From the IMG/VR virus record IMGVR_UViG_2563366960_000002: a stretch of DNA of 64,000 nt; one strand, written 5' to 3'. Below, in pieces: positions 3,536 through 6,094 of this stretch (positions within the stretch are counted from its first letter, which is position 1; every line of letters starts with the position of its first letter). The DNA is from a virus (Duplodnaviria > Heunggongvirae > Uroviricota > Caudoviricetes). The position numbers were made by a program, and so were the translations under genes. The notes beneath the pieces are model-generated. The model did not search any database. It was given only the letters and a program-made list of their open reading frames with translations, and had not been told where the DNA came from.

Positions 3536-4237
3536 CTATTCTGATTCCTGCTCAAAAAACGAGCTAATGAGGGGAAGCCAATCCTCTGACACTTCGCGAG
3601 GTCGCGGTTTGCCGTGGAAAAAAATTATTCGGCAGTCCTTTGGTAATGCCCCATTCCCCCTGGAGTAACGCGCGCTCGCATATTTTGAACCTGGTTCCAC
3701 AACATCGGCCTTGTAACTTACAAACCATCCTGGATACAGATCCTGAAATGCTGGTGTATCATCGCCCATAACCTTCCGTAAGAACCCCTGATCACCCCAG
3801 CACTCAGTAGTGACACAACGAGAAATCCAACCTTCCGGATCTTGCCAGAATGAACTCCAGATATGCGCTTTTACACTATTTGGTATCCACAGGGCACCGC
3901 TGCCACGATATTGTGGATGGTAAAAATCCCTAAGCATGGTGAAGCTGGTTGGTGGATCCTCAAGGATTGGGCGTATATCACCGGCAATAACCGTGTCCAA
4001 ATCCAGATAGAACAGATCATCGGTTATATCCGGTCGGAACAACTCGATTTTCGCCCACCAGCCACGGCACTTTTGCCACTGGTTGATCAATGGGACAACT
4101 TTGACGCCAGGTACATGTAAACGCTTCAGGTCTGTCAGGCAAATAATTTCATAGCCTTTTGGCAGTTGATTAACCAGCCACTGCACATCGGAAGCGTTAT
4201 AGTCACCACCAGAGCGAAGAACTAAAGCAATCTTCAT
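3536..4237 (-). CDS. Rossmann-fold protein with DxD motif, possible nucleotide-sugar transferase
   Basis: 233 aa; N-terminal beta-alpha-beta ([13 protein letters not shown]...YEIICLTD) and [13 protein letters not shown]; 4-nt overlap with the upstream phosphatase gene. Confidence 0.3.
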
Positions 4238-4926
4238 GCTGCACCATCACCTTTCACTTTCATCAATGTCAGGTTTCCGCAAAATACGGCACCAGTGTCG
4301 ATATAATGCTGATTCCAGAATGTCTTCGGGCTTTTCACCGGAGTGTGACCAAAGATAAAACGATCTGCGCCCGAAATTTCGCCACCAATATCATCCATCG
4401 AATCACTGATACGCTCTCGCGCCCAGACAACGTTGAAAAGCGGCACCTCCTTACCGAATTGATATTCATTATCCGGATAGTCGGCATGGGCTATAACGAT
4501 AGTTTCTTGCCCGGTGTTCAACTCAATGATATAGGGCAGACGCTTTACCAGCTCCACCAGCGCCCTAGCTAATATTTCCTGATCAGTGTCCAGCATGAAG
4601 AACCATTGTCCGCCATTCATTAGCCAGTTATTCACGTTGCCATCAGGACTTAACGCATCAATCATCAGCCGCTCATGGTTCCCCATCACTGCCCTGAACC
4701 AGGGCATCTGCAATAGTTCCAGACATTCGACATTTTCAGTACCGCGATCGATAAGGTCGCCGACCGATATCAGTAAATCCTGCGCCGGGTCAAAATCCAC
4801 ACGATGGAGTTCGGACATCAGTCTGGTGTAGCAACCATGCAGATCACCAACAACCCAGACATTCCTGTATTTGGTACCGTCGATACGGTGATAAATTGTT
4901 GGTGCCATCATGTATTCTTCAGCCAT
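4234..4926 (-). CDS. ppp: Ser/Thr protein phosphatase, lambda-PPase metallophosphoesterase family (P1 Ppp-like)
   Basis: 230 aa with GDLHGC, GDLIDRG and GNHE metal-binding motifs in canonical order. Confidence 0.8.
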
Positions 4927-5534
4927 TCTTTAAGAGTCATCTGCGGAATACCTCCCATTTTCCCGCATGAAACAACGTCAATCTGTTCACGCGCAGACTG
5001 GAATAACAAAGGCAGGTGACTTAGATTTTTTGGCGTGCCGCCGGAATGAACGCGTGGTTCTTGCGTAGCGTCAACGCCCACCAGGGCTACATGTTTGAAT
5101 CCGATATGGAAAGCCAGGTTCAGAGCACCATATGCACTATTGCCGCTGGCAATTTCATTCTCATCTTCGCAAAGGCCGAAATGTGCGGACCAGCGCCACG
5201 CCCACCACTCGGGAGAATTCGTATTTTTTGGCTCCGTGCCGCGCTCAGCCACACGACGGAAGCACAAAACGCCGTCTCTGACCTCACGTTCTTTAACATC
5301 GGGTAGCGCCATGCAATAACAAACACCACGGCGACGGCGGCCACGACCAACGCGCCGCATATTGTCTGGCGATGGATCAAGGGTGAAAAAATAAGAAGCG
5401 CGGTTAAGCCAGTCGATGGCCCCATTGACCGCTATAATCGGCACTCCGCGCGGCGCAACAAAGTTTGCGGCGCTTGGGCCACTGCCGACGATAATAACGC
5501 GATCACTGCCTCTAAATTTATTCTTGGGAAACAT
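4908..5534 (-). CDS. GT42/MAF (DUF115)-fold nucleotide-sugar-transferase-like protein, paralog 1
   Basis: 208 aa; [13 protein letters not shown]...IIAVNGA and [25 protein letters not shown] resemble the GNGPSL and ITSGVYMCAVAIALGYKEIYLSGIDF motifs of the Campylobacter sialyltransferase Cst-II as I recall them. Confidence 0.45.
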
Positions 5535-6094
5535 TGAATTGCACTGCTCCTACTTGCATTCAAAATATGTAAATCTGCGTGTTTTTTGCGGGTATCCAGG
5601 AACTGCTGTTGCCATTTTGAAATAGACACCTGCGTTGGATTCCGTAGAGCTTGAGGGTGCGCACCATGCCAATGAAGGCCGTTTTGCAGAGAACAGTCAT
5701 AGCCGACTAATACCACTACTTCAGCCCCTGATTCAGCCGCCAGACTGATAGCCTGCGCGCCGCTATTTACCCCTTCCGCCGGTCCACAATATCGCCTGTA
5801 CTCCAACGAAAATGATTTCGCCGCCGCCAGGTTGGCTGTCACTTTGCGGAACCTCCCTCCCGGTATGGTGGAACCGTATTGCTTCCACCATGACAAATCA
5901 CCGGCGTATAAGGCATAAATGTCATCGAACATCTGCCAGGAATTGTTAACCGCGATGATTGAACAGCCAGTTTTTTCTATAGCAGCACAGTCCTCACGAG
6001 TGAGTGACGGACCGCTACCGACACAAAAAACAGTCCTAGTCGCCCTGGGTGGTATGTTCATTCTCAGCTGCAAATTCAGCCTCCAGGCGAGCAT
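5432..6094 (-). CDS. GT42/MAF (DUF115)-fold nucleotide-sugar-transferase-like protein, paralog 2
   Basis: 220-aa ORF; VFCVGSGPSLTRED...IIAVNNSW, GVNSGAQAISLAAESGAEVVVLVGYDCSLQNG and HWHGAH; alternative start at MNIPP; 103-nt overlap with paralog 1. Confidence 0.45.
   Translation of the reverse strand: MLAWRLNLQLRMNIPPRATRTVFCVGSGPSLTREDCAAIEKTGCSIIAVNNSWQMFDDIYALYAGDLSWWKQYGSTIPGGRFRKVTANLAAAKSFSLEYRRYCGPAEGVNSGAQAISLAAESGAEVVVLVGYDCSLQNGLHWHGAHPQALRNPTQVSISKWQQQFLDTRKKHADLHILNASRSSAIQCFPRINLEAVIALLSSAVAQAPQTLLRRAECRL

Follow-up and report, generated by a model that had tools for sequence, protein, structure and literature searches.

A phage P1 operon encodes two Maf/GT42-fold proteins and a GT8-like partner of a widespread candidate glycosylation cassette

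The DNA analysed here, a stretch of 64,000 nucleotides (nt) referred to as the window, is a phage-plasmid of P1 type. Its bases 3400-6900 share 97.4% identity with phage P1 (NC_005856) and 96.3% with P7, and the minus strand of 3536-6094 corresponds to the P1 operon pmgN-pmgO-pmgP-ppp-pmgQ, on which the P1 repressor C1 acts as a repressor. Although P1 is one of the phages used most in genetics, the five genes are still without an assigned function. We suggest, tentatively and with somewhat less than even confidence, that PmgO, PmgP and PmgQ, probably together with Dbn from the distant ban operon, form one soluble cytoplasmic pathway that would build a short glycan during lytic growth. The features concerned are these, in window coordinates:

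5432..6094, minus strand: pmgO, first paralog with a predicted Maf/GT42 transferase fold, 220 amino acids (open reading frame list and P1 homology)
4908..5534, minus strand: pmgP, second paralog with a predicted Maf/GT42 transferase fold, 208 amino acids, the most conserved member of the cassette (open reading frame list and P1 homology)
3536..4237, minus strand: pmgQ, predicted GT8-like GT-A glycosyltransferase, 233 amino acids, with D79-L-D81, GDQG and FHGxPxP (phrog_1962 and family profile)
4234..4926, minus strand: ppp, lambda-type Ser/Thr metallophosphatase, 230 amino acids (Pfam Metallophos; PHROG NinI-like)
12028..13002, minus strand: dbn, predicted GT4-like GT-B glycosyltransferase of the ban operon, 324 amino acids (Pfam, RefSeq and comparative context)
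6036..6224, minus strand: pmgN-like small open reading frame, first gene of the operon, 62 amino acids as listed, 51 in the P1 annotation (phrog_2350, unknown function)
6235..6251, plus strand: C1 repressor operator Oppp, formerly Op83 (position carried over from the P1 annotation, L001 6836-6852, offset 601)
6258-6836, minus strand: pmgM, 192-residue VRR-NUC protein (weak match), upstream neighbour of the operon
3469..3534: C1 operators Op86b (3469-3485, plus strand) and Op86a (3518-3534, minus strand) with promoter PpmgR (operator scan and P1 annotation)

The open reading frames and motifs quoted in the initial annotation, which was made from the letters alone, are all present on the minus strand, and that annotation rightly allowed that the genes may belong to the P1 backbone, since the region shows the above identity to P1 genes pmgN-pmgQ. 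Successive genes overlap: pmgO shares 103 nt with pmgP, pmgP shares 19 nt with ppp, and ppp shares 4 nt with pmgQ. The pmgN-like reading frame overlaps the listed start of pmgO by 59 nt, or by 26 nt if pmgO starts at Met12 (ATG at 6061-6059); the latter is probably the true start, as residues 1-17 of PmgO are disordered in the model and homologs start near residue 17-20. The sequence of Oppp, TATGCACTAATTAATTT, has 4 mismatches to the C1 operator consensus and was consequently not listed by our operator scan, which allowed 3. Op86b and Op86a belong to the next operon and abut the stop codon of pmgQ, marking the downstream end of the operon. Across the whole window the same scan returned 9 matches, with 0.26 expected by chance; examples are 1378-1394, 7142-7158, 21342-21358, 37811-37827 and 39494-39510, as well as an overlapping pair at 17809-17836.

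PmgO carries the motifs CVGSGPSL, IIAVN, NSGAQAISLAAESGAEVVVLVGYDCS and HWHGAH, and PmgP carries IVGSGPSA, IIAVNG and VHSGG. While their pairwise similarity is weak, the two family profiles align by hhalign with 97.7% probability (E 2e-12, 161 columns), and each protein cross-matches the PHROG of the other. The paralogy that had been proposed for these adjacent overlapping genes is thus, judged by profile comparison, beyond chance, although it is distant. The best fold match of the AlphaFold models is the Maf glycosyltransferase of M. magneticum (5mu5), with scores of 13.9 for PmgO and 13.4 for PmgP, followed by the archaeal 6-hydroxymethylpterin pyrophosphokinase (HPPK) MptE (8sd5; 11.5 and 12.5) and the C. 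jejuni sialyltransferase Cst-I (2p56; 11.0 and 10.6); thiamine pyrophosphokinases and GT29 sialyltransferases come further down the list (about 7-10 and about 7-9). Both models contain the fold of the Maf catalytic core (PF01973), and both are built, as in GT42, on a single Rossmann-type fold in which a GxGPS nucleotide loop lies at the N-terminal end and a G-I-D motif serves for ribose binding. A fold search of BFVD returned only phage proteins that are unnamed or called 'MptE-like'.

Searches of PDB sequences with PmgO alone, with the PmgO family profile or with a close PmgP profile gave chance-level matches or none. A broad PmgP-family profile does find Cst-II as its best match (E 0.0024-0.01), with Cst-I at E 0.31, over two short motifs only: GSGPS...AVN aligns to G8-S12...N31 of Cst-II, and G-V-D155 aligns to G152-I-D154, segments that we take to be the CMP-binding elements of Cst-II (CMP, cytidine monophosphate). 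An acidic residue, a Ser and an Asp are invariant in both families (D66/S111/D133 in PmgO, D53/S133/D155 in PmgP), with 22 residues between the Ser and the Asp in each protein. In the Maf protein of C. botulinum, D272, S334 and D357 are essential, and S334 and D357 are 23 residues apart (10.1101/2020.06.03.131540); the equivalence that we draw is one of motif order and spacing, not of residue-level superposition. Because these residues are kept at a spacing close to that of Maf, both PmgO and PmgP look catalytically competent from their sequences. Invariant His residues also follow the G-x-D motif (H141, H143 and H146 in PmgO, H173 in PmgP), and the sequence alignment leaves them off His188 of Cst-II. 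The likeness to Cst-II and Maf noted in the initial annotation hence holds for the fold, with 5mu5 as the best model match, and for the motif alignment with Cst-II (E 0.002). Both proteins are basic, with isoelectric points (pI) of 9.3-9.5.

In P1 the pmgO/pmgP overlap (5432-5534 of the window) contains the heptamer A_AAT_TTA in the pmgO frame, at about 5518-5512, and pmgP lies in the -1 frame relative to pmgO in all six overlaps examined; a slip on the heptamer could in principle yield a PmgO-PmgP fusion like the natural in-frame protein P0051 described below. We considered such a -1 frameshift product and treat the heptamer as a chance occurrence, given that the overlaps of C. rodentium and Chimaeribacter have no slippery heptamer and that the shift would drop the last helix of PmgO.

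PmgQ belongs to phrog_1962, 'glycosyltransferase' (E 1e-127). Its family profile matches the Skp1 alpha-galactosyltransferase structure 6mw5 (E 2e-8) and, at E 5e-6 to 5e-3, glycogenins and other GT8 structures, with the DxD, GDQG and C-terminal regions aligned; D79-L80-D81 is invariant in 33 homologs. PmgQ had been described as a DxD Rossmann protein, which can now be sharpened to GT8-like: the marks of CAZy family GT8, namely a DxD motif, a GT-A fold and similarity to GT8 members, are all predicted from its sequence, although Pfam PF01501 gives no match at E <= 1. Dbn matches Pfam Glycos_transf_1 with 24.5 bits, slightly below the cut-off of 26.4, and its ortholog in RCS47 is named 'glycosyltransferase family 4 protein' in RefSeq. 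No 19-residue hydrophobic stretch, as a membrane span would need, occurs in PmgO, PmgP, PmgQ, Ppp or Dbn (maximal Kyte-Doolittle 19-residue means 0.9-1.6). PADLOC gave no match among the six proteins scanned, and a role in defence or anti-defence was dropped on this ground.

Next to dbn, 12999-13304 on the minus strand holds a reading frame of 101 amino acids (phrog_12809, unknown function) between dbn and ban, the gene of a DnaB-type helicase. Phage records among the matches listed cover 81% of a 11900-13400 query, in two pieces, and the same interval is fully covered in 52 of the 438 matching P1-like plasmids, with 100% identity in Salmonella CP083412 and E. coli KU980950; from this pattern of coverage, the window is a P1-like phage-plasmid variant.

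Unrelated elements of Proteobacteria, Bacteroidota and Gemmatimonadota carry adjacent homologs of PmgO, PmgP and PmgQ. In the Citrobacter rodentium phage phiNP the cassette lies between the lysis genes and the terminase, and in HK97-type prophages of Pseudomonas and Zhongshania it lies directly 3' of the major capsid gene, as do PmgP-PmgQ in an Ochrobactrum prophage. It is also present in an Alcanivorax prophage, in the 385-kb Xanthomonas jumbo phage XacN1, in E. coli phage EP_H11, and in prophage-like regions of Brevundimonas, Sinomicrobium (Bacteroidota) and Longimicrobiales (Gemmatimonadota). Wherever a host name was seen for one of the three families, the host is Gram-negative. This diversity comes from a genome scan and exact-protein look-ups; a scan of viral contigs that used the PmgP alignment kept 80 loci, every one of them 99-100% identical to the query protein.

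The PmgP family is small, as an exhaustive hidden Markov model search of 1.84 billion representative proteins returned only 488 clusters, and these include the fusions PmgP-PmgQ, PmgQ-PmgP, PmgQ-PmgP-methyltransferase and methyltransferase-PmgP. A metagenomic phage carries PmgO-PmgP as a single protein of 376-389 amino acids (P0051). In XacN1 a TylF-type O-methyltransferase is fused to PmgQ; an FkbM-type methyltransferase accompanies the cassette in Sinomicrobium and follows it in locus L022, and class I S-adenosylmethionine-dependent methyltransferases accompany it in other lineages. Based on this co-occurrence, the fusions and the shared partners, we suggest that PmgO, PmgP and PmgQ act in one pathway; from the fusions, a complex of the three proteins is predicted. 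EP_H11 encodes a Dbn homolog (48% identical) between its PmgP and PmgQ homologs, and a prophage remnant of Buttiauxella (L020) has a second one at a distance of 3 kb from PmgQ-PmgP. The GT-B gene at 12028-13002, which the initial annotation had counted among the sugar-transferase-like genes of the same phage, is thereby tied to the cassette through its neighbourhood in EP_H11, and P1's distant dbn probably belongs to the same pathway.

The opposite holds for the phosphatase, which the initial annotation had placed in one operon with the transferases. Ppp is a lambda-type Ser/Thr phosphatase with a calcineurin-like metallophosphoesterase domain (59.5 bits with Pfam Metallophos, whose cut-off is 21.5; PHROG NinI-like, E 1e-113; 278 bits to the PrpA/PrpB-type NCBIfam model, below its equivalog cut-off of 326). 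It occurs only in P1-like loci and is absent from every non-P1 cassette examined. We therefore do not count Ppp among the functional members of the cassette: it is an insertion of the P1 lineage between pmgP and pmgQ, co-expressed with them and outside the pathway. A second phosphatase gene lies within the same run of non-essential genes as ppp; this is pap (1435-1899, minus strand), whose product has a HAD_PNKP match (E 7e-9) to the phosphatase domain of polynucleotide kinase-phosphatase.

Local G+C content is 0.55 at 5001-5500, a segment centred on pmgP, compared to 0.475 for the window, and PmgP is 50-60% identical to its Pseudomonas, Ochrobactrum and Alcanivorax homologs; the high G+C around pmgP would fit the idea that the cassette has spread horizontally. 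In the phages D3, PAJU2 and Eowyn, a PmgO homolog occurs without PmgP or PmgQ, in the company of a protein of 275-296 amino acids (phrog_6804; with a faint GT9 match in Eowyn) and a Methyltransf_23 enzyme. The PmgO homologs of Pseudomonas phage PAJU2 (ORF010, L111 4974-5543) and Klebsiella phage Eowyn (L113 4998-5570) bear the depositor label 'structural protein'.

The cassette also exists outside prophages. In five metagenome-assembled genomes of Enterobacteriaceae (four Pseudescherichia and one unclassified; L010-L014), the three cassette genes occur in the same order in chromosomal regions that are not prophages; an inverse-autotransporter adhesin gene lies directly upstream of PmgO and on its strand, and PmgP and PmgQ have further Big_1-domain proteins as neighbours. 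At L010 (1357-7248) this adhesin has 1178 amino acids and seven Big_1 domains, and PmgP and PmgQ stand beside two more Big_1 proteins; the adhesin and the Big_1 proteins beside the cassette are possible substrates. The arrangement resembles that of dedicated adhesin glycosyltransferases, whose genes lie beside those of their substrates.

Part of this could be read from public annotation. PHROGs and RefSeq already label PmgO 'alpha-2,3-sialyltransferase' and PmgQ 'glycosyltransferase', with PmgP given as 'unknown' or, so spelled, 'norphogenetic protein'; the sialyltransferase label is thus not new, and the fold assignment, while right, was already in place. What goes beyond it is the breadth of a glycosylation cassette backed by fusions, the removal of Ppp from it and the addition of Dbn, and the hypothesis of a CMP-Kdo donor (Kdo, 3-deoxy-D-manno-octulosonate).

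We propose that PmgO and PmgP, as single-domain Maf/GT42-fold enzymes, would each most likely add a Kdo-type residue from CMP-Kdo; that PmgQ, GT8-like and probably retaining, would most likely add a hexose from a uridine diphosphate (UDP) sugar; and that Dbn could add a further sugar, with a methyltransferase joining in other lineages. Once C1 repression is lifted, the operon would be switched on and the glycan made during lytic growth. To our knowledge, the transferases of this fold that have been characterised (those of GT42 and GT29, Maf and, as a sub-threshold PF01973 match, WaaZ) all use a CMP-activated 2-keto-3-deoxy sugar acid, and CMP-Kdo is, as far as we know, the only such donor in E. 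coli K-12, which does not synthesize CMP-N-acetylneuraminic acid (CMP-Neu5Ac). As the cassette has no genes for sugar-nucleotide synthesis, donors of the host would be used, and with CMP-Kdo as the sole donor of this type in K-12, a Kdo-type residue is predicted. The Kdo III transferase of E. coli, WaaZ, itself matches PF01973 (E 7e-7, below the cut-off), and Maf enzymes working in E. coli were shown to place Kdo on Ser/Thr (10.1101/2020.06.03.131540).

The acceptor is the weakest step in this scheme. We favour Ser/Thr of a virion or surface protein, by Maf-like O-glycosylation; the position of the cassette 3' of the capsid gene in several HK97-type prophages, and beside an adhesin in Pseudescherichia, hints at a protein acceptor. 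Stated in full, namely that P1 and many phages of Gram-negative bacteria employ small Maf-like enzymes to put Kdo-containing O-glycans on virion or surface proteins, the proposal is one that we regard as unlikely.

Several observations weigh against both the glycan pathway and this acceptor. PmgO and PmgP score 23.4 and 20.9 bits against Pfam PF01973 and do not reach its gathering cut-off of 34.6; some homologs do pass (the L003 fusion with 45.2 bits, P0339 with 44.1), and many carry a precomputed PF01973 match, from which we conclude that the PmgO/PmgP family is a divergent branch. Transferase activity of PmgO, PmgP and PmgQ is a prediction, and the choice of CMP-Kdo is an argument by elimination. 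The settings of the cassette are mixed, after a capsid gene, between lysis genes and terminase, among nucleotide-metabolism genes and, in some bacteria, outside prophages, so that gene context singles out no acceptor. In the literature searched, we found no report of a glycosylated P1 protein, nor any experimental study of the activity of the cassette. Gonzales et al. made in-frame P1 deletions of pmgO, pmgP, pmgQ, ppp and dbn, which plate normally and keep antirestriction; five other pmg genes are essential, and the remaining 24 mutants form plaques normally with antirestriction unchanged (PMC9024508). Genome-wide CRISPR interference (CRISPRi) likewise found pmgO, pmgP, ppp and pmgQ to be non-essential (PMC10695390). 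The initial annotation had named deletion without phenotype as a result that would speak against it; this is what is reported for plaque formation, antirestriction and essentiality, although plaque and antirestriction assays on laboratory E. coli would miss a glycan. The four proteins PmgO, PmgP, Ppp and PmgQ were not detected in P1 virions with liquid chromatography coupled to tandem mass spectrometry (LC-MS/MS), a study in which glycans were not looked for.

A different acceptor, which we consider somewhat unlikely, is lipopolysaccharide (LPS). PmgO and PmgP would then, like WaaZ, add extra Kdo to the inner core on Kdo2-lipid A where it faces the cytoplasm at the inner membrane, and PmgQ would act like the GT8 core glucosyl/galactosyltransferases WaaO/WaaJ, so that phage receptors on the altered LPS would be lost or masked; the benefit would be less superinfection or less loss of progeny on debris, or a gain for the host where the cassette is kept. 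The P1 receptor is the LPS core, P1 binds core glucose, and the named hosts all make LPS. WaaZ falls in the same Pfam family, likewise below the cut-off, and one homolog has a faint precomputed WaaZ_KDO_III match; similarity to WaaZ itself is nonetheless negligible, at 11.8 bits for PmgP against a TIGR04437 cut-off of 200 and 11.6% hhalign probability for the PmgO family. The PmgQ profile picks up E. coli WaaJ (E 3e-4), and the basic character of PmgO and PmgP (pI 9.3-9.5) also fits this role. Prophage remnants and non-phage islands (L020, L110, L010-L014) have kept the cassette, which suggests a host-directed role, yet most prophages have it within late or lytic operons, and C1 represses it in P1, so that it would be silent in lysogens. 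We would not expect the LPS already in the outer membrane to be changed within one lytic cycle, and no P1-dependent change in LPS was found in the literature searched.

PmgO and PmgP might instead resemble MptE and the thiamine pyrophosphokinases in function and pyrophosphorylate a small molecule, as the name MptE-like of their sole Pfam match would have it. This we think improbable: Maf scores higher in the fold comparison, the PDB sequence matches of the family profile are Cst-II and Cst-I alone and align at the CMP-binding motifs, and in many lineages a GT8-like transferase and methyltransferases are fused to the proteins or encoded beside them.

Hydroxymethylated pyrimidines receive glucose in T4 and some other phages, and glycosylation of phage DNA bases as a protection against restriction is a further, very improbable, role for the cassette. 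Among lytic or jumbo phages, it is found amid nucleotide-metabolism genes, with a ribonucleotide reductase, in L109 and XacN1, and L109 also has weak ThyX and faint deoxynucleoside monophosphate (dNMP) kinase matches; in P1, dbn follows ban and the cassette follows the VRR-NUC nuclease gene. Phage glycosyltransferases that put Kdo or heptose on 5-hydroxymethylcytosine (5hmC) are known, but the Kdo-adding DNA enzymes are GT-B, T4-beta-GT-like proteins of a different fold (10.1101/2023.12.21.572611). The DNA glycosylation of that preprint begins at a 5hmC handle, and no hydroxymethylase or TET-type gene lies beside the P1, phiNP and HK97-type prophage cassettes examined; the deletions, moreover, left P1 antirestriction unchanged.

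That the proteins are structural or assembly factors, as the depositor annotations of P1 (pmg, putative morphogenetic function) and P7 (hdmB-D, head morphogenesis), the 'structural protein' labels in PAJU2 and Eowyn and the place of the cassette among virion genes in several phages would imply, is extremely improbable and for P1 largely refuted by normal plaques of the deletion mutants, non-essentiality by CRISPRi, the failure to detect the proteins in the virion, and enzyme folds with invariant residues of active-site type.

If, as we prefer, a Kdo-containing glycan is made, this would add a new route by which phages direct glycosylation in Gram-negative hosts, and it could influence phage stability, immune recognition, receptor masking and host range. 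With proteins as acceptors, it would amount to natural Ser/Thr-O-Kdo protein glycosylation and, concealed in the pmg genes of P1, to a virion glycosylation system that would be the first in a classical coliphage; we know of no earlier case in such a phage. Compact Kdo or ulosonic-acid transferases of about 200 residues would also be of use in glycoengineering. Should nothing be glycosylated, 'alpha-2,3-sialyltransferase' would be a label of fold only. The question is directly testable, as pmgO, pmgP, pmgQ, ppp and dbn have each been cleanly deleted from P1 already.

Among known systems, Maf (5mu5; PF01973/DUF115) shares its fold with PmgO and PmgP over a core of about 160 residues, although the 5mu5 chain has 632 residues compared to about 200 in the phage proteins. 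Residues essential in Maf are E324 and D415 in M. magneticum and the D272/S334/D357 triad of C. botulinum; the invariant triads of PmgO and PmgP may correspond to the latter, judging by motif order and by the Ser-to-Asp spacing. Maf genes adjoin flagellin genes, while the phage cassette has two paralogs and a GT8-like partner and is not beside flagellin genes, no flagellin-family Pfam match having been seen among annotated or scanned neighbour genes.

With Cst-I and Cst-II (CAZy GT42) the similarity of the PmgP family is marginal (E 0.002, two short motifs), and the catalytic His188 and the phosphate-binding tyrosines of Cst-II are unaligned. As a statement of specificity, 'alpha-2,3-sialyltransferase' is almost certainly a misnomer, because the usual host of P1 makes no CMP-Neu5Ac. 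WaaZ (TIGR04437 / NF007333), also in PF01973 below the cut-off, takes its sugar from CMP-Kdo, which is the one CMP-activated sugar acid of K-12; it has 283 amino acids and acts on LPS, and in TIGR04437, where PmgP stays far from the equivalog cut-off as given above, PmgO has no match.

PmgQ shares the DxD, GDQG and C-terminal G-x-x-K/R-P-W motifs with the retaining GT8 transferases (glycogenin, Skp1 alpha-galactosyltransferase, WaaO/WaaJ) over about 165 residues, at E 2e-8 to 5e-6, and differs in its length of about 230 amino acids and in falling below the Pfam GT8 threshold. Virion glycosylation has been demonstrated in mycobacteriophages, while for the P1 cassette it is a prediction. Mycobacteriophage genome announcements speak of putative glycosyltransferases and of suspected capsid glycosylation. 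The mycobacteriophage cassettes (Che8-type, clusters F and O) offer the parallel of phage glycosyltransferases acting on capsid and tail, built from other enzyme families and in hosts of Gram-positive type.

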